Virus genome (UHGV): UHGV-0247086
Direction: 5' to 3' (one strand)
DNA length: 60,779 nucleotides
Source of the DNA: a virus
Part shown: positions 25,497 through 52,687 of the stretch, one piece after another
Position numbering within the stretch: position 1 is the stretch's first letter
Layout of the letters: each line of letters opens with the position of its first letter
Notes under the pieces: model-generated
The model's database searches: none
Seen by the model: only the letters and a program-made list of their open reading frames with translations
What the model was told of the DNA's origin: nothing
Position numbers and translations under genes: made by a program

Positions 25497-26812
25497 GGGT
25501 CTTCCCTTGTTGTGGTGGCTGAAGGCATGATAATGGCGTATTAAATCGCCAGAGGTCACCACCATGGACGAAAAGTCCCTCTATGCACATATCCTCAACT
25601 TGTCAGCTCCGTGGCAGGTAAAGTCTCTTTCTCTCGATGAAAATGCCGCTTCTGTTACCGTTACTGTCGGAATCGCTGAAAATACTCAGTTAACCTGTCC
25701 AGCCTGCGGGAAATCCTGCCCCGTTCACGATCACCGGCATCGTAAATGGCGCCACCTCGATACCTGCCAGTTCGCCACGATAGTTGAAGCCAGTGTGCCC
25801 CGTGTTATGTGTCCGAAGCATGGATGCCAGACTTTGCCTGTTCCGTGGGCGGGGCCCGGCAGCCGGTATACGCTGCTGTTCGAATCATTCGTGCTTTCAT
25901 GGCTGAAAATCAGCACTGTTGATGCGGTCAGGAAACAACTCAAACTGAGCTGGAATGCCGTTGACGGCATTATGACCCGCGCGGTTAAACGAGGTCTTGC
26001 ACGCATAAAAAAGCCGTTAGCAGCCCGGCATATGAATGTGGACGAGGTCGCTTTTAAAAAAGGACATCGTTATATAACGGTGATCTCCGATCGTGACGGG
26101 CGGGCGCTGGCTTTAACGGATGATCGAGGTAAGGAAAGTCTTGCCGGTTACCTCAGAACCCTGACTGACGGACAGCTGCAGGCCATTAAAACGCTCTCAA
26201 TGGACATGAATGCGGGCTATATAAGAGCCGCGCGCATCCACTTACCGTGTGCAGTTGATAAAATCGCCTTTGACCGCTTCCACGTAGCGAAACAGCTGGG
26301 TGAGGTGGTGGATAAAACCCGCCAGAATGAACATCCCCGTCTTCCGGTTGAAAGCCGCCGTCAGGCCAAAGGTACCCGCTTCCTGTGGCAGTACAGCGAC
26401 AAATGGATGACTGAGTCCCGGCAGAAAAAGCTGATGTGGCTGCGGGAACAGATGCAGCAGACAAGCCAGTGCTGGACACTGAAAGAGCTGGCCAAAAATA
26501 TCTGGGATCGCCCCTGGAGCACAGAACGCAGGAATGACTGGTTGCAGTGGATATCGCTGGCGTCTCAATGTGATGTGCCGATGATGAAAAACGCAGCGAA
26601 AACCATCAAAAAACGGTTATATGGAATACTGAATGCGATGCATCATCGTGTCTCGAATGGTAATGCAGAGGCGCTGAACAGCAAGATCAGACTGCTGAGA
26701 ATAAAAGCCAGAGGATACAGGAACCGGGAGCGCTTTAAGCTGGGAGTGATGTTCCACTATGGAAAACTGAATATGGCGTTCTGAGTCTTCCCACCATGAT
26801 CGGGGAAGACCC
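25497..26812 (+). mobile_element. ISL3-family insertion sequence (1316 bp) with 8-bp TSD ATATAAAA, inserted into the umuDC LexA operator
   Basis: Terminal IRs GGGTCTTCCC...GGGAAGACCC. TSD at 25489-25496 and 26813-26820. Removing the IS and one TSD copy restores TACTGTATATAAAAACAGTG. Confidence 0.85.
25564..26784 (+). CDS. ISL3 family transposase
   Basis: 406 aa with an N-terminal zinc-finger (CPACGK...CPKHGC) and a DDE domain. Confidence 0.85.
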   Translation: MDEKSLYAHILNLSAPWQVKSLSLDENAASVTVTVGIAENTQLTCPACGKSCPVHDHRHRKWRHLDTCQFATIVEASVPRVMCPKHGCQTLPVPWAGPGSRYTLLFESFVLSWLKISTVDAVRKQLKLSWNAVDGIMTRAVKRGLARIKKPLAARHMNVDEVAFKKGHRYITVISDRDGRALALTDDRGKESLAGYLRTLTDGQLQAIKTLSMDMNAGYIRAARIHLPCAVDKIAFDRFHVAKQLGEVVDKTRQNEHPRLPVESRRQAKGTRFLWQYSDKWMTESRQKKLMWLREQMQQTSQCWTLKELAKNIWDRPWSTERRNDWLQWISLASQCDVPMMKNAAKTIKKRLYGILNAMHHRVSNGNAEALNSKIRLLRIKARGYRNRERFKLGVMFHYGKLNMAF

Positions 26813-26823
26813 ATATAAAAACA

Positions 26824-28745
26824 GTGTGCGCCGGGAGACCGGTAGAGATCAAGGGGTGAAAGTCCCCGACCATTGAAGGACCAGCAATCCACAAGGTCCC
26901 CGAGTCATGCGTTGCATACCGCGAGGTATGGGGCGAAGCGTTGACAGGGGTGTTGACAGGCCAGCCATTGAGCCACGAAATGTATATTAAATTACCGGGT
27001 GCCGACGTTGTACTGTTAACGGAAGGCAACATCATAGGGTGCGATACTGCGAGTGCCACATGGACCCGGCGGGGTCTGAGACCCTGGCATGTCAATACGA
27101 TCTCTACGCGGGAACCGGGAGATCTCCCCTCTGACCATCTGCCAGTGTCGGGGATGGCCCGCACCGGGAAGACGAGGAGTCATAGCCGGTGATGTACGGA
27201 GAGGAGAAGTCGGACTCGCTCATAGTAGCGGCGAAGCAGGCGAACAACCCGAAAGGAGCGGAGTCAGTGGAGCGAAGGAGCGGGGCCAAGGGGAACGCGG
27301 AACAGCCACACATGCGCCGGACACAGAGCCGGGAAAGCATGTCACAGAGGCTGTCACGCGTGCGGGAAGCTGCGAAGCAGCGGAAGAAAGAACGGTTTAC
27401 AGCATTGTTCCACCTGCTGACAGTCGAAGCACTGGAAGCCGCATTCCTCTCCCTGAGCAGGAAAGCGGCCGCCGGAGTGGATGGCATCAGGTGGATGGAC
27501 TACGCCGGAAACATGAAGAACAACATAACAGATCTGCACCGGAGGCTACATCAGGGCAGCTACAGGGCGCAGCCCGGCAGGCGTCACTACATCCCAAAAG
27601 CGGATGGAAAACAACGCCCGCTCGGCATCGCCTCGCTGGAGGACAAGATCGTCCAGTATGCGCTGGTGAAAATCCTGAACGCAGTCTATGAAAACGACTT
27701 TATGGGGTTCTCATACGGGTTCAGACCCGGGCGAAGCCAGCACGATGCACTGGACGCACTGGCCACAGGGCTGGTACGCACTAACGTAAACTGGGTACTG
27801 GATGCCGACATCAGTCAGTTCTTTGACAGGGTGAGCCATGAATGGCTGATCAGGTTCACAGAGCATCGGATCGGCGACCGGAGGGTAATCAGGCTCATAC
27901 GTAAGTGGCTCACAGCCGGGACGTCGGAGGAGGGTCAATGGCGAGCAACGGAGGAAGGCACCCCACAGGGTGCGGTCATCTCACCGCTGCTGGCAAACAT
28001 ATACCTCCACTACGTCTTCGATCTGTGGGCGCATCAGTGGCGACGTCGCTATGCCACAGGCAATGTGGTAATGGTCAGATACGCCGATGACATCGTCATC
28101 GGGTTCGACAAACGATACGATGCCCGGCGCTTCCGTATAGCCATGCAGCGCAGACTGAGGGAGTTCGGACTCACGGTTCACCCGGAGAAAACCCGTCTGA
28201 TGGAGTTCGGCCGCTTCGCTGCCGAAAACCGTGCCATCAGGGGAAAAGGCAAACCAGAAACGTTCAACTTCCTCGGGTTCACGCACATCAGCGGGAAAGA
28301 TCGCAACGGCAGGTTCATGCTGATACGAAAGACCCGCCGGGATCGGATGACGGCAACTCTGAAAGCCATCAAAGACGGTCTGCGAAGGCGCTGGCATTAC
28401 TCAATCCCCGAACAGGGAAAATGGCTCAGGAGAGTGGTTCAGGGATACCTGAACTATCACTCGGTACCGGGCAACTTCCCCACCATGCAGAAGTTCAGGA
28501 CACACGTAACAAACCTCTGGCGCCGGGCGCTCAGGCGCAGGAGCCAGAAGGATGATACGACCTGGACGAAAGCAAACAAACTGGCAGCCGCATGGCTACC
28601 AGGGGTTCGGGTTCTTCATCCATGGCCTGTGGAGCGGTTCACCGCCAGACACCCGAGGCAGGAGCCCGGTGCGTAAATCGCGCACGCCGGGATCTGTGCG
28701 GGGGGTATCCGGTAACGGGTATCCCTACCGCGACATTAATCTGAG
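26824..28745 (+). mobile_element. bacterial group II intron (5' end GUGUG/GUGCG at 26824-26830; 3' end uncertain), sense to umuDC
   Basis: GTGYG 5' end, intron-encoded RT/maturase ORF, and a 34-nt DV-like hairpin (14 bp, 2-nt bulge, GUAA loop) at 28698-28731 just after the ORF. Confidence 0.7.
27189..28676 (+). CDS. group II intron-encoded reverse transcriptase/maturase (no endonuclease domain evident)
   Basis: RT motifs ([29 protein letters not shown]) including YADD, followed by a maturase X-like region. The true start is probably internal. Confidence 0.85.
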
Positions 28746-28756
28746 CGAGTCAATTA

Positions 28757-29175
28757 TGCAGTTTTACACGCCCGTTGAGTTACGTGAGATCATGCTGATC
28801 CCGTTGTACAGTGACCTTGTGCAATGTGGTTTTCCAAGCCCTGCACAGGATTATGTTGAGCAACGTATCGATCTGAACGAGTTGCTCATTAACCACCCCA
28901 GTGCGACGTATTTTGTCAAAGCCGCCGGCGACAGCATGAAAGACGCCGGCATAGGGGAAGGGGATCTTCTGGTTGTGGATAGCTCAAGGACAGCAGTTCA
29001 TGGCGATATCGTTATTGCTGCTGTGGATGGGGAATTTACCGTTAAGAAGCTGCAGCTGCATCCGCGGGTTCAGCTTAACCCAATGAACCCTGCATATTCG
29101 CCGATAGTCGTGGGTAGCGAGGATACTCTCGATGTGTTCGGGGTCGTAACTTACATCATCAAATCGGCTGGCTGA
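28757..29175 (+). CDS. umuD: translesion DNA polymerase V accessory subunit UmuD (LexA-like S24 peptidase)
   Basis: Collinear with UmuD by recall: N-terminal [23 protein letters not shown], and the catalytic Ser (GDSM) and Lys (VKKL). Confidence 0.9.
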
Positions 29176-29176
29176 G

Positions 29177-30442
29177 ATGTTTGCACTTTGCGATGTGAAC
29201 TCATTTTATGCATCGTGCGAGACCGTATTTCGTCCTGACCTGAAAGGGCGTCCGGTGGTCGTCCTGTCAAACAACGACGGCTGCGAGATCGCCCGTTCAC
29301 AAGAGGCAAAGCCCTTTGTCAAAATGGGCGAGCCTTATTTCAAGCAAAAGGACATGTTTCGCCGGCACGGTATTATCGCGTTTAGCAGCAACTATGAGCT
29401 TTATGCCGATATGTCCAACCGAGTGATGACAACGCTGGAGGAACTCTCTCCACGCTGCGAAATTTACAGTATTGATGAGGCATTTTGCGATCTTACAGGT
29501 GTGCGTAACTGTCGCGATCTTACCGACTTTGGCAGAGAAATTCGCGAGACAGTTCTGCGTAGGACGCACCTCACGGTCGGCGTCGGCATAGCCCAGACTA
29601 AAACCCTGGCGAAGCTGGCCAATCATGCTGCGAAACAGTGGCAGCTACAGACCGGAGGAGTGGTGGATCTGTCTAATCTTGAAAGGCAGAGGAAGTTGAT
29701 GGCTTTGCTGCCGGTGGATGAGGTCTGGGGCGTCGGGCGCCGCATCAGTAAAAAACTTGAGGCCATGGGGATTAAAACTGTGCTGCAGTTGGCGGATACC
29801 GATATCCGTTTTATCCGGAAGCATTTCAACGTCGTGTTGGAAAGAACTGTGCGGGAGCTGCGCGGCGAACCATGCCTTGGCCTTGAGGAGTTCGCGCCGG
29901 TAAAGCAGGAAATCGTGTGCAGCCGTTCGTTCGGCGGCCGTATCACTGAATACCATGAGATGAGGCAGGCGATATGCAGCTACGCCTCACGTGCCGCGGA
30001 GAAACTCCGTGGTGAGCACCAGTATTGCGGATTTATCTCCGCATTTGTCAAAACCAGCCCCTTTGCGCTGAACGAGCCGTACTATGGGAACAGCGCATCG
30101 GTAAAGCTGTTAACCCCAACGCAAGACAGCAGGGACATAATCACCGCAGCGACCAAATGCCTCGATGTAATCTGGCGAGAGGGGCATCGCTATCAGAAAG
30201 CAGGCGTTATGCTGGGGGATTTCTACAGTCAGGGCGTGGCCCAGCTCAACCTCTTCGACGACAACGCACCACGGAAGAATAGCGAGAAACTGATGGAAGT
30301 TCTCGACCATCTCAATGCGAAAGGCGGAAGAGGAACTCTGTATTTTGCAGGGCAGGGGATCCAGACTGCCTGGCAGATGAAGCGGGAAATGCTTTCGCCT
30401 CGGTACACCACGAGATACAGTGACTTGATACATGTGAGATGA
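29177..30442 (+). CDS. umuC: translesion DNA polymerase V catalytic subunit UmuC (Y-family polymerase)
   Basis: MFALCDVNSFYASCE Y-family N-terminus, 421 aa, immediately downstream of umuD. Confidence 0.9.
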   Translation: MFALCDVNSFYASCETVFRPDLKGRPVVVLSNNDGCEIARSQEAKPFVKMGEPYFKQKDMFRRHGIIAFSSNYELYADMSNRVMTTLEELSPRCEIYSIDEAFCDLTGVRNCRDLTDFGREIRETVLRRTHLTVGVGIAQTKTLAKLANHAAKQWQLQTGGVVDLSNLERQRKLMALLPVDEVWGVGRRISKKLEAMGIKTVLQLADTDIRFIRKHFNVVLERTVRELRGEPCLGLEEFAPVKQEIVCSRSFGGRITEYHEMRQAICSYASRAAEKLRGEHQYCGFISAFVKTSPFALNEPYYGNSASVKLLTPTQDSRDIITAATKCLDVIWREGHRYQKAGVMLGDFYSQGVAQLNLFDDNAPRKNSEKLMEVLDHLNAKGGRGTLYFAGQGIQTAWQMKREMLSPRYTTRYSDLIHVR

Positions 30443-45470: not shown

Positions 45471-45670
45471 CAATCGTAAAAACCCATACCGGCACCGTGA
45501 TCACCAAAGACGGTCCGAAGGTAAAAAAACTGCACCAGACAGAGCGGATGTGGGTCGTCGGCAAAAACGAGTTTTACCACAAAGAAACCGGGCGCCGTCA
45601 CTTTGCAGAAAATACGCGCCGCCGGTTGTTGTTGGAAACGATTGAGGCGATAGGTGGTTCACATGACTGA
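45467..45670 (+). CDS. hypothetical protein
   Basis: 67 aa, translationally coupled, nin-like region. Confidence 0.4.
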   Translation: MTIVKTHTGTVITKDGPKVKKLHQTERMWVVGKNEFYHKETGRRHFAENTRRRLLLETIEAIGGSHD

Positions 45671-45917
45671 ACACGTCGAAAAATACACAAACAAGGCTAT
45701 AGAAATCATTGCCGACTATATCCAGCGCACTAACAAGAAAAACGAGCAGTTGCAGGAAGCGAAAGTGCGCTTGGATAAAAAAATCGCTCTGTTCGCAGAC
45801 GATGAGAACTGCAACACAAACAGGCTGATGTCTGTATTTTTACCAGCAATGACCAGCCATACCCGAGATGGCTTTTTCGAAGAGATAGCAGCGGCGTTAG
45901 AAGGAGCCAACCAATGA
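45654..45917 (+). CDS. hypothetical protein
   Basis: 87 aa, overlapping coupling. Confidence 0.4.
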   Translation: MVHMTEHVEKYTNKAIEIIADYIQRTNKKNEQLQEAKVRLDKKIALFADDENCNTNRLMSVFLPAMTSHTRDGFFEEIAAALEGANQ

Positions 45918-46741: not shown

Positions 46742-46927
46742 TGGACTCTTCCCTGGAATATGCCTGCAAACGCCTGCAGGAACTGGAAAGCCTGTTGCTG
46801 GTGGATGCACGTGAACCAGGAATTTTACTTTAATAAGGGGCAGGGGCAGAACGTGGTGGCTAGTAAGTGTATCTAAATAATTTTCAAGCCCGCATGTAAA
46901 AATACATGCGGGTAATGGATAATGCAA

Positions 46928-48433
46928 TTAAGACAATAGCCTTTGTAATTGAGCGCCGAAAGATGTGAAGTCTACTTCCCGTTTAATATCTTCACTTAAA
47001 TTTCTTATGAAATAAGATTCGTTTATATTTCTATTTTCAAGGTCTTTTTTTACTCTGAAATAAAATAATTTATCGGGACTTTTAGGGGTTCCAGGGTATT
47101 GTTTGTGATGTTCAGCAGCAAGATCATCTAATGATTTTATTGGGAAATACTTGTCATTGATCGTTTTTCTTAATCTGTCGTTTGCTTTGTTGAACACGAT
47201 GCTGAATATGAATTTTTCAATGCTTTGTATCGGAAGGAAAAGTTTAGCAAGGTTTTTGTATTCATTTTTTTTTGCAACATCAGAAACAACATCACCATCC
47301 AAAATACTAACTATCTGTTTGTTAACTCCAATAACATTGTTTCTTAATAAATCTAAGTGCAAATTTAAAACATTTTGCCACCCACCAACAGGTGATATGT
47401 GTATCAATCTACTGTTTTTTAAACCTGTATCAGAGAGGACGCTATCAATTACTAATGATGCCAATGCGTCTTCTGCTAAAATTAGATAGTCGAATCCATC
47501 GTGACGGTAGACCTCACGAATAGCATAGCTTGGGAAGCAGGGGTTGATTAATTCTAATATTCCTTCATTATTGTTAATCAAGTACATGTTCTGTGGCTTA
47601 AGGGCTCGAATCACTTCTGGGGAGTGAGATGTTAAATAAACACATAATTTTGGATACGACTCTAATAATGAATTTAAGTAACCAATTAATCGGGAAATGG
47701 CAATGGGGTGTAAAGCCAATTCTATTTCATCAATGAGTATGAAAAAGGTTCTATCTGTTACGCTTCTGTTTTTGCCTTGGTTGATCAAGGTGTGATAAAT
47801 ATAATTTAAAAGTGAAATTAGAAGGCACTCACCTGAACTCATGCGGTACTGACTAAGCAGATCACCTTTTTGGGTTGTCATGAAATAAGGCAGGTTAGAT
47901 AACTCGAAGTTTTCAGATATATTTTTATTTTTTATTTTCTTCATGTCTTTGTAATGATTATAATCACCATGAAGAATGTAGCTTAAATTATCCTTTACGT
48001 AATCGAAAGCATCAACAATTTGATCGTCTTTTATTCGGTTGTTACGCAGTAATTTGTCGACAATAGTAGAATCTCTAAAGCGGGCCCCATAAAATAAACT
48101 GCCTTCATAAACACCCTTATATGAGAGTGGTCTGCTAGAACACCACCACATGTTTTCATTGTTTCGCTGCCTTTTTTTAACAAACCAATGGTTAGATTCT
48201 TCATAATCATCAGCGGAAATAGCAACATCAATGGTAGAGTTATCATCAAAATCTTCATCTTGGAGCATATTAAAACGTTTGGAACTTAATAAAACTGACA
48301 TGATCAACATTAAGGTGCTTTTGCCACATCCATTGCCACCAACCAGGCTATACAAGCCTCCTTCAATAGGGAGTTCGATATCTGCATTTTTGATGTTTTT
48401 AATGTTATTGATTTTTATCTTCATCAGGTCCAT
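46928..48433 (-). CDS. OLD-family-like ABC ATPase with C-terminal Toprim-like domain (candidate anti-phage defence nuclease)
   Basis: Walker A GGNGCGKST, signature-like RMSSGE, Walker B FFILIDEIELALHP and H-loop TSHSPE. C-terminal LAEDALA and ILDGD (E...DxD Toprim pattern). About 30% GC. Confidence 0.75.
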   Translation of the reverse strand: MDLMKIKINNIKNIKNADIELPIEGGLYSLVGGNGCGKSTLMLIMSVLLSSKRFNMLQDEDFDDNSTIDVAISADDYEESNHWFVKKRQRNNENMWWCSSRPLSYKGVYEGSLFYGARFRDSTIVDKLLRNNRIKDDQIVDAFDYVKDNLSYILHGDYNHYKDMKKIKNKNISENFELSNLPYFMTTQKGDLLSQYRMSSGECLLISLLNYIYHTLINQGKNRSVTDRTFFILIDEIELALHPIAISRLIGYLNSLLESYPKLCVYLTSHSPEVIRALKPQNMYLINNNEGILELINPCFPSYAIREVYRHDGFDYLILAEDALASLVIDSVLSDTGLKNSRLIHISPVGGWQNVLNLHLDLLRNNVIGVNKQIVSILDGDVVSDVAKKNEYKNLAKLFLPIQSIEKFIFSIVFNKANDRLRKTINDKYFPIKSLDDLAAEHHKQYPGTPKSPDKLFYFRVKKDLENRNINESYFIRNLSEDIKREVDFTSFGAQLQRLLS

Positions 48434-48963
48434 AAGTTACACTCATGAGTTAATGTTTTGATATTGTTATGTGTCAAGCGCATAGAAAAACGGAACAAAT
48501 AAGTTTTGATAATGGGAGTAATACGCTTCACAACTGCAACATACTATGAGGACGGGGGCATTTTCAATGAAGAACCTTTGCAAAGCGAATTTTTTAAAAA
48601 AATACTTGACATTTGTGTTTTTTTGAAAAATACTTATCAGGGTAAAAGACAAACGCGCTAGATAGATATAGGAAGTGTTTGGCTTAGTTATCAAGTCAAA
48701 CCGTCTTGATTTGATACATTGTGGGCGCTAAGGGCCCGCTAAAATTTAATGATAATCAGTGATGTGAAAACGTCGATTGGATTATCCAGCACTATAATGC
48801 TAAGAAAAAGCCCCTAAGTTCCAACATAGGGGCTTGTTTTGTTTATAGATACACATCATCATTAACTCTTACATACCTACTGTGATTGCGTTTTTGCTCT
48901 GAATACTTTCGTGAGTGACCTGCTCATCGCTGAGATCACCTCTTCGCTAAATAGTAAGCAACT

Positions 48964-49268
48964 AAGATGAGTTCGCTGAACATTAGACTAATTGCTCCTG
49001 ACCTTTTTCGATGTAATTCAACATGTGATACTTTAGCGCTTCCTTTATGGCATCGTTCACATCAGCATGTGCATGCTCCAGCCGAGAACTCTACTGCGCG
49101 AAATACTTCCCCGAGTGGTACATCATCGATCAGGATTACCGCGGTGTGAAGTATGCGAAGGATAAGCAGGTTGCGCGTTGTGGTAATGCGGTTCCTCCGC
49201 CTTTTGCTGAGGCGCTGGTGAGGGCTAATTTACCGGAGATGTGCCTGAAAAAAGGTATTGCAACATGA
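48964..49268 (+). pseudogene. C-terminal remnant of a DNA (cytosine-5) methyltransferase
   Basis: Motif ARCGNAVPPPF (C5-MTase motif X GNAV) with no upstream catalytic domains. The upstream in-frame region has no plausible start for a full MTase. Confidence 0.5.
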
Positions 49269-49270
49269 TA

Positions 49271-49294
49271 AAACCCGCTTCGGCGGGTTTTTTA
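49271..49294 (+). terminator. rho-independent terminator
   Basis: ACCCGC-TTCG-GCGGGT followed by TTTTT. Confidence 0.75.
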
Positions 49295-52611: not shown

Positions 52612-52687
52612 GCTGGTTTAGCTCAGAAGGTAGAGCGCCTGCCTTGTAAGCAGGATGTCGGCTGTTCGATTCCGTCAACCAGCACCA
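52612..52687 (+). tRNA. tRNA-Thr (anticodon UGU), phage-encoded, between Q and the lysis region
   Basis: 76 nt cloverleaf: acceptor GCTGGTT/AACCAGC, D arm GCTC/GAGC with GG, anticodon stem CCTGC/GCAGG with loop CTTGTAA, T loop TTCGATT, and 3' CCA. One U-C mismatch in the T stem. Confidence 0.65.

Follow-up and report, generated by a model that had tools for sequence, protein, structure and literature searches.

The gene and its ATPase half

The window analyzed here, the whole 60,779-nt stretch of UHGV virus genome UHGV-0247086, is a Klebsiella-type lambdoid prophage that carries on its minus strand a solitary gene for a 501-amino-acid (aa) ATPase–Toprim protein (Table 1). The open reading frame (ORF) was found where a preceding inspection of the bare sequence (the original prediction) had described it. 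Its AT-richness was also confirmed, although the GC content of about 30% given there was slightly low; the gene has 34.1% GC (33% at third codon positions, GC3) between flanks of 52–53%. The cassette in which it lies (35% GC) is the sole strongly AT-rich stretch in the window.

Pfam searches with the protein retrieved AAA_15 (5e-15) and AAA_21 (1e-10), both above their cut-offs and covering approximately aa 1–290, and all Pfam matches were to ATPase families. The full set of ABC motifs claimed in the original prediction was present: Walker A, the signature, Walker B, and the H-loop were invariant in an alignment of 34 homologs with identity down to 48%, including D235 and E236 in the Walker B/D-loop stretch ILIDEIELALHP. 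Foldseek matched the ATPase domain to OLD, GajA, PtuA, and SMC heads. The protein also matched phrog_3940 at 8e-49, and a database search yielded 848 homologs of ~500 aa, which are named 'AAA family ATPase' or 'ATP-dependent nuclease' by NCBI.

Toprim assignment of the C-terminal half

The E...DxD pattern noticed earlier in the C-terminal region proved to be real and invariant across the 34 homologs (E321-D322 and D379-G-D381), as were G350-G351 and E406-K407. In both structure models (whole chain, pLDDT of 86.5; aa 296–501, pLDDT of 87.8 and pTM of 0.82), E321-D322 ends the first strand and the DxD (D379/D381) ends the third strand of a four-strand beta–alpha unit. Strand ends are the usual place of the Glu and the DxD in Toprim domains.

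Comparisons with PADLOC, reported here as profile-match scores and not as calls at PADLOC's own thresholds, supported this assignment. PDLC02914 (ATPase-Toprim_I-B) matched aa 4–423 over model positions 3–391 of 443 (1.2e-43, 147.9 bits) and outscored the HEC-04 model, which matched aa 3–421 over 78% of its length (1.4e-21, 74.7 bits). These two models extended well beyond the ATPase, whereas the PtuA, AriA, GajA, and Old models ended at approximately aa 290–300. In the whole-chain Foldseek search, Thermus scotoductus OLD (TsOLD), GajA, and the effector of retron Eco8 appeared ahead of or among the ATPase-only PtuA matches.

Several other searches were negative. No Pfam family matched the C-terminal halves of 20 family members even at E = 10, and a lone Toprim_4 match at 0.059 in the C-terminal half was noise. 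Pfam, NCBIfam, and PDB sequence searches of aa 296–501 found no Toprim or nuclease domain, a profile of the C-terminal domain retrieved nothing relevant from PDB sequences, and Foldseek with the isolated C-terminal domain model returned generic alpha/beta folds only (E ≥ 2e-3). Among the profiles by which the original prediction was to be checked, AAA_21 was thus matched and the Pfam OLD/Toprim families and DUF4435 were not, while the PADLOC ATPase–Toprim models spanned the Toprim region. The Toprim assignment is established at the level of fold and motif, with a small Z margin. With its ABC ATPase at the N terminus and, at the C terminus, a Toprim domain carrying the Glu and the DxD, the 501-aa protein belongs by architecture to the OLD superfamily.

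Table 1. Coordinates of the gene, its domains and motifs, and the features of the surrounding cassette
Feature	Position	Strand	Remarks
Solitary ABC ATPase–Toprim (OLD-superfamily) gene	46928-48433	-	501-aa ORF
N-terminal ABC ATPase domain, aa 1-295	47549-48433	-	Pfam, invariant motifs, Foldseek
Walker A GGNGCGKST, aa 32-40, with K38	48314-48340	-	Invariant, 34 homologs
ABC signature QYRMSSGE, aa 195-202	47828-47851	-	Invariant, 34 homologs
Walker B and D-loop FFILIDEIELALHP, aa 230-243	47705-47746	-	Invariant, 34 homologs
H-loop TSHSPE, aa 268-273, with H270	47615-47632	-	Invariant, 34 homologs
Toprim-like alpha/beta core, aa 312-410	47204-47500	-	
Toprim motif IV LILAED	47459-47485	-	
PVGGW	47378-47392	-	
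Toprim motif V SILDGDV	47288-47308	-	
SIEKF	47210-47224	-	
C-terminal helical bundle, aa 411-501	46931-47203	-	Invariant D427-K428-Y429-F430, D454-K455, Y458, R468
AT-rich cassette (35% GC) replacing ~1.9 kb of phage C5 methylase gene	46820-49049	.	Breaks in homology to L001
5' methylase-module remnant, first 25 codons	46741-46815	+	Small upstream ORF annotated 'putative DNA methyltransferase'
3' C5 methylase remnant, last 59 codons	49050-49268	+	Contains ARCGNAV
Native phage terminator 3' of methylase gene	49270-49291	+	9-bp stem, then TTTTTTATTAT
10-bp perfect hairpin, probable gene terminator	46886-46909	-	Weak U-tract; RNAfold -17.9 kcal/mol
Promoter-like block TCGACG-N16-TATCAT after TGGATAATCCA	48748-48788	-	~315-355 nt upstream of ATG
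Bidirectional terminator-like hairpin flanked by T-runs	48808-48838	.	Upstream edge of conserved cassette core
Promoter-like site TTGACA-N17-AATACT facing away from gene	48606-48634	+	10/12 matches

Solitary context and distribution on mobile elements

Neither a reverse transcriptase (RT), a helicase, nor any other large ORF was found in the 616 bp upstream of the gene or downstream of it, and no partner adjoined the gene here or at the homolog loci, in agreement with the proposed single-gene system lacking an adjacent helicase. We compared 14 homolog contexts with the window, covering lambdoid, P2-like, Pf, and satellite-like elements, four plasmids, and four metagenomic or draft-genome contigs; no neighbor gene was shared among them, and none of the 14 contained an RT.

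The Klebsiella and Serratia homologs sit in lambdoid nin slots, and the E. coli homolog lies at a prophage edge. Others were located in the lambdoid N–cI slot beside an AAA_21 and HNH (Septu-like) pair (Edwardsiella), in the int–repressor slot of a P2-like prophage (Yersinia), at one end of a Pf filamentous prophage (P. aeruginosa), and in a satellite-like island with an integrase, a DUF3987 protein, and a small terminase subunit (Burkholderia). The homolog genes were 10–25 GC points below their flanks in every host examined (38% versus 63% in P. aeruginosa and 43% versus 62% in Burkholderia), except at an already AT-rich CRISPR locus. An exhaustive profile search gave 213 representative clusters (at 50% identity) at E ≤ 1e-30, the number rising to 727 at E ≤ 1e-10. 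Only one of 50,697 deposited phage genomes carried the gene, namely that of Pf phage PfAC13 (81% identity), in which the copy is annotated as 'putative AbiEii toxin'. AbiEii is a DUF1814 nucleotidyltransferase toxin that pairs with an AbiEi antitoxin, and the AbiEii description of AAA_21 is a legacy label. No AbiEi-like neighbor was present among the window ORFs beside the gene. The PfAC13 paper treats the PfAC13 homolog as an 'incomplete' system.

Some relatives were found in other company. In the Edwardsiella piscicida prophage (L009, 2206-3952), the Septu-like AAA_21 ATPase and HNH pair lies just beyond N, and the ATPase–Toprim homolog, across N from this pair, is placed between N and a cI-like repressor, leaving N flanked by two defense-type modules beside the immunity region. 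A 712-aa relative (P0224; PDLC02914 at 8e-50) with a ~190-aa N-terminal extension was encoded on metagenomic contig SRR27205360_2447 (L025, 4001-6139), where the locus, of ~22–26% GC, resembles a type I CRISPR-Cas operon in the order Cas6, a 564-aa protein, the ATPase–Toprim protein, Cas7, a 253-aa protein, and a Cas3-like helicase. Remoter relatives with a 66–90-aa N-terminal extension occur on the enterotoxigenic E. coli plasmid pEntH10407 (L015, 3055-5461) and at L022 (1451-3834), which are unrelated replicons; each lies directly downstream of a Phd/RelE-type or ParE-type toxin–antitoxin (TA) pair, and the precomputed Pfam matches of one of them include IF2_N.

Comparison with known systems

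OLD proteins are classified by gene context as class 1 (solitary), class 2 (Gabija), or class 3 (retron type I-B) (PMC10568477), and by context the gene is a class 1 OLD. By sequence, the 501-aa protein is closest to the short I-B effector profile. Identity to class 1 OLDs (P2 Old, TsOLD (6P74), V. cholerae OLD, and E. coli YbjD) was ~9–13%, the class 1 Old model of PADLOC aligned only over aa 220–290 in the ATPase region, and no Pfam OLD or Toprim family was matched. Motif IV reads ED (E-D-x-L) instead of the EGxxE of class 1 OLDs, and the ATPase inserts are shorter, the protein having 501 aa versus 528 aa for TsOLD. Mestre et al. described the 'ED' motif IV in I-B1 effectors and EGxxE in I-B2 effectors and classical OLDs. 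The I-B1 effectors (OLD class 3B, Mestre cluster 22_2, PDLC02914) thus share motif IV and the DxD with our protein and provide its best profile, but the adjacent RT and msr/msd noncoding RNA (ncRNA) of a type I-B retron were found neither here nor at the homolog loci examined, and the gene is presumably autonomous.

This resemblance raises the possibility of an orphaned retron type I-B effector that has lost its RT and ncRNA and is inert or reliant on a retron elsewhere in the cell. PDLC02914 was the best profile for every relative tested as well, and the Eco8 effector is reported to need its holocomplex for activity (PMC12887533); double-stranded DNA is cut by the holocomplex and not by the effector alone. 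We nevertheless consider an orphaned effector very unlikely. The cassette and its surroundings contained no RT ORF or Rfam retron RNA, and the window's single RT, a group II intron protein, lies 20 kb away. Across the 213 clusters, the family persists as an intact, conserved solitary gene, and its scores of 110–209 bits against the I-B model indicate a related family, not necessarily seed members. For the distant homolog P0238, a truncated gene located 6 bp upstream had no Pfam or PADLOC match, retron RT models included.

Among validated systems, HEC-04 is the closest functional analogue: a single-gene ABC ATPase–TOPRIM system that protects against T4 and T5, requires its Walker A lysine and E/DxD residues, and is toxic when induced (Payne et al. 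2024 preprint). HEC-04 and IbfA are single polypeptides of ~500 aa that join an ABC ATPase to a C-terminal TOPRIM domain and act alone, and the spacing of the acidic residues is near-identical (E319/D375/D377 in HEC-04 and E321/D379/D381 here). HEC-04 is distant, however, and only the second-best model. It was found within Hma systems, and IbfA is carried by conjugative plasmids; the clade described here occurs mainly in prophages. IbfA of the IncI1 plasmids R64 and pUA1135, a reported HEC-04 homolog, is said to abort infection by a P22-like phage. Orthology to IbfA was rejected, as tblastn at 1e-5 gave 55 plasmid records, all with ≤ 35% identity and none from IbfA-bearing IncI1 plasmids.

GajA and the PARIS proteins AriA/AriB have the general logic of ABC ATPase–Toprim nuclease defense in common with our protein. 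Of the OLD-family, PARIS, and Gabija-type affinities named in the original prediction, the OLD superfamily was retained and the other two, both two-gene systems, were not. PARIS is recognized by an AAA_15 or AAA_21 ATPase with DUF4435 (Rousset et al. 2022), and DUF4435 was not detected in the whole protein at E ≤ 1 or in 20 C-terminal domains at E ≤ 10. No UvrD/PcrA/Rep-like helicase ORF, as GajB would be, adjoined the gene in the window or at the homolog loci read. It is therefore extremely improbable that the gene is a fused PARIS (AriA–AriB) or a Gabija GajA without its partner. AriA (5e-17) and GajA (1e-16) models of PADLOC were matched and GajA was among the top whole-chain structural matches, but the sequence matches spanned the ATPase half only, and the fused AriAB model was not among the listed matches to the 501-aa protein and matched one relative weakly in the ATPase region only.

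P2 Old cleaves tRNA-Thr(UGU) in its anticodon stem (PMC12445682); AriB is reported to cut tRNA, and GajA and V. cholerae OLD to nick DNA. The only tRNA gene of the prophage, located just downstream of Q (52612-52687, plus strand, anticodon TGT), encodes tRNA-Thr(UGU), the isoacceptor destroyed by P2 Old and replaced by phage tRNAs. With the anticodon stem CCUGC/GCAGG and A37, it retains the cleavage-linked CUG/CAG pseudo-palindrome and is therefore not obviously a resistant decoy. A link between this tRNA and the OLD-like gene was rejected, as the tRNA is present in the cassette-less Klebsiella phage 5 LV-2017 (L001) and absent from the cassette-bearing L003–L005.

Replacement of a phage methylase gene by the cassette

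Klebsiella phage 5 LV-2017 shares both flanks of the cassette; nucleotide homology to it stopped at 46819 and restarted at 49050. The slot in L001, between EaA and DinI, holds a 715-aa C5 cytosine methylase (Pfam DNA_methylase, 1e-18), and no endonuclease was found near it. Both ends of this module remain in the window. The 5' remnant, which the original prediction had not recorded, is 92% identical over 25 aa to L001 4024-4281. At the other end, a 73-aa ORF (49047-49268, plus strand) containing VARCGNAVPPP is 93% identical over 59 aa to residues 656–714 of the L001 methylase and matches phrog_23072 'DNA methyltransferase' at 4e-23, and it is thus the isolated C-terminal fragment of a C5 methyltransferase that had been described there. 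The terminator reported beyond the fragment is likewise present as a hairpin with a T-run, and it falls within the backbone homology with L001, L002, and L003.

Decay of an earlier restriction–modification or defense module, as suggested from this fragment, was rejected: the methylase of the relative is an orphan, the flanks are homologous, and a 2,230-bp cassette has been swapped in for ~1.9 kb of the methylase gene. The insertion is an accessory-gene swap at a variable site. A diverged version of the cassette occupies this slot in other Klebsiella prophages (95% identity of the protein and 82% of the DNA over 46905-48851), with different junctions. On the plus strand, the cassette is preceded by a DnaC/IstB-like replication gene, a ParB–helix-turn-helix (HTH) gene, and small ORFs and followed by DinI, DUF1367 (NinB-like), a RusA-like ORF, the Q antiterminator, and the tRNA, for which 'nin-like region' was a fair description.

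The neighborhood of DnaC-like, ParB–HTH, and RusA genes, together with weak SMC_N, RecF, and SbcC-like matches of the ATPase head, would suit a RecF/SbcC/Rad50-like ATPase–nuclease serving the prophage's own replication or recombination. We find this distinctly unlikely, because the gene is antisense to the early operon, is foreign in composition, and replaces a methylase kept by close relatives. Its single occurrence among the deposited phage genomes also argues against such a role, as does its presence on elements that share no replication strategy (a filamentous phage, a satellite-like island, and plasmids).

Regulatory signals in the cassette

The cassette looks like a self-contained expression unit, judging from its signals. 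The hairpin downstream of the gene was not called by a consensus scan. The promoter-like block shows 83–87% conservation across the window, Klebsiella L003, and E. coli L027, the gene itself being ~77% identical to the E. coli copy. It lies ~20 nt inside the upstream hairpin, which is also conserved in L003 and L027. The outward-facing site retains its TTGACA in L003. Promoter-like sites were no more numerous in this region than the shuffled expectation. The outward-facing site is directed at the conserved block and the terminator ~200 nt on (48606-48845, plus strand), and a small, unsupported divergent transcript is possible.

An alternative is that the gene encodes an addiction or stabilization toxin, with an RNA or small-peptide antidote in the 616-bp upstream spacer and with prophage keeping, more than phage exclusion, as its main role. 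The spacer is unusually long in most lineages (270–900 bp), conservation is higher in the block at 48700-48850 than closer to the ATG, and the outward TTGACA site points to the terminator; in addition, HEC-04 toxicity and the TA pairs adjoining the plasmid relatives are compatible with a toxin. We regard this alternative as unlikely, as the upstream sequence had nothing in common with its counterparts in Serratia and Pseudomonas (aa identity of 89% and 80%, respectively), the spacer yielded neither a conserved small ORF nor an Rfam match, and the promoter-like sites did not exceed chance expectation. A retron-free offshoot of the I-B1 effectors, still dependent on a nucleic-acid regulator encoded in cis, has a similarly slight probability, just below that of the toxin; here, ~48600-48850 would specify a ~200-nt RNA or a long structured leader that holds the ATPase–Toprim protein inactive until infection, as multicopy single-stranded DNA (msDNA) does in retrons.

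A family-wide upstream ncRNA was rejected, as no sequence similarity extended beyond the Klebsiella and E. coli lineages. Apparent terminal inverted repeats (46867-46928 versus 48776-48854) were attributed to chance, as no such pair was present in Klebsiella L003, E. coli, Serratia, or Pseudomonas.

Proposed function and significance

The gene probably encodes an autonomous single-polypeptide defense or exclusion enzyme of the OLD superfamily. Architecture and context support the central point of the original prediction, a solitary OLD-like ATPase–Toprim defense gene at a variable site of a prophage; the closest relations and the origin of the methylase fragment given there needed correction. 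The gene sits in a 2.2-kb AT-rich 'moron' cassette with its own promoter-like block and bracketing hairpins, and its antisense orientation to the early-right operon could allow expression from the repressed prophage. If it works like P2 Old, HEC-04, GajA, and AriAB, the ATPase may act as sensor and switch, answering infection by another phage through one of its products or consequences. Binding or hydrolysis of ATP would then license the Toprim site, with E321/D322 and D379/D381 as putative Mg2+ ligands, and the activated site would cut nucleic acid and abort the infection. Substrates differ across the OLD superfamily; here the target may be DNA, nicked as by V. cholerae OLD and GajA, or tRNA, cleaved as by P2 Old and AriB.

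Whether solitary OLD-type proteins can give broad defense alone was asked in a 2023 review of OLD nucleases, and HEC-04, IbfA, V. cholerae OLD, and YbjD have begun to answer this question. The present gene, whose product most likely serves against rival phages, is an uncharacterized and poorly annotated addition to a known kind of system whose architecture is already known. Its clade adds a compact (~500 aa) and widespread branch. In current annotation this clade is missed or mislabeled, with no Pfam domain on the Toprim half, the name 'AAA family ATPase' at NCBI, and the labels 'AbiEii toxin' and 'incomplete system' in the Pf-phage literature. The best PADLOC model belongs to an RT-requiring system, and tools requiring an RT may therefore overlook the clade. 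Prophages of Klebsiella, Serratia, Yersinia, Edwardsiella, and Pseudomonas commonly carry the gene, and such overlooked cargo matters for host-range prediction in phage therapy. The nearness of the clade to the I-B1 retron effectors makes it a natural counterpart against which to judge the contribution of the RT and msDNA.

Other features of the window

An 87-aa ORF preceding the cassette (45654-45917, plus strand) matched PF18737 (HEPN) at an E-value of 0.0055 and 17 bits, below the cut-off of 26.8, which is probably noise. A cluster of mobile and SOS-type genes was identified at 25564-30442 (plus strand). It comprises an ISL3-family transposase (25564-26784), the group II intron (RF02005, 26859-27084, 187 bits) with its RT ORF (27189-28676, RVT_1 at 5e-47), and UmuD-like (28552-29175) and UmuC-like (29177-30442) genes.

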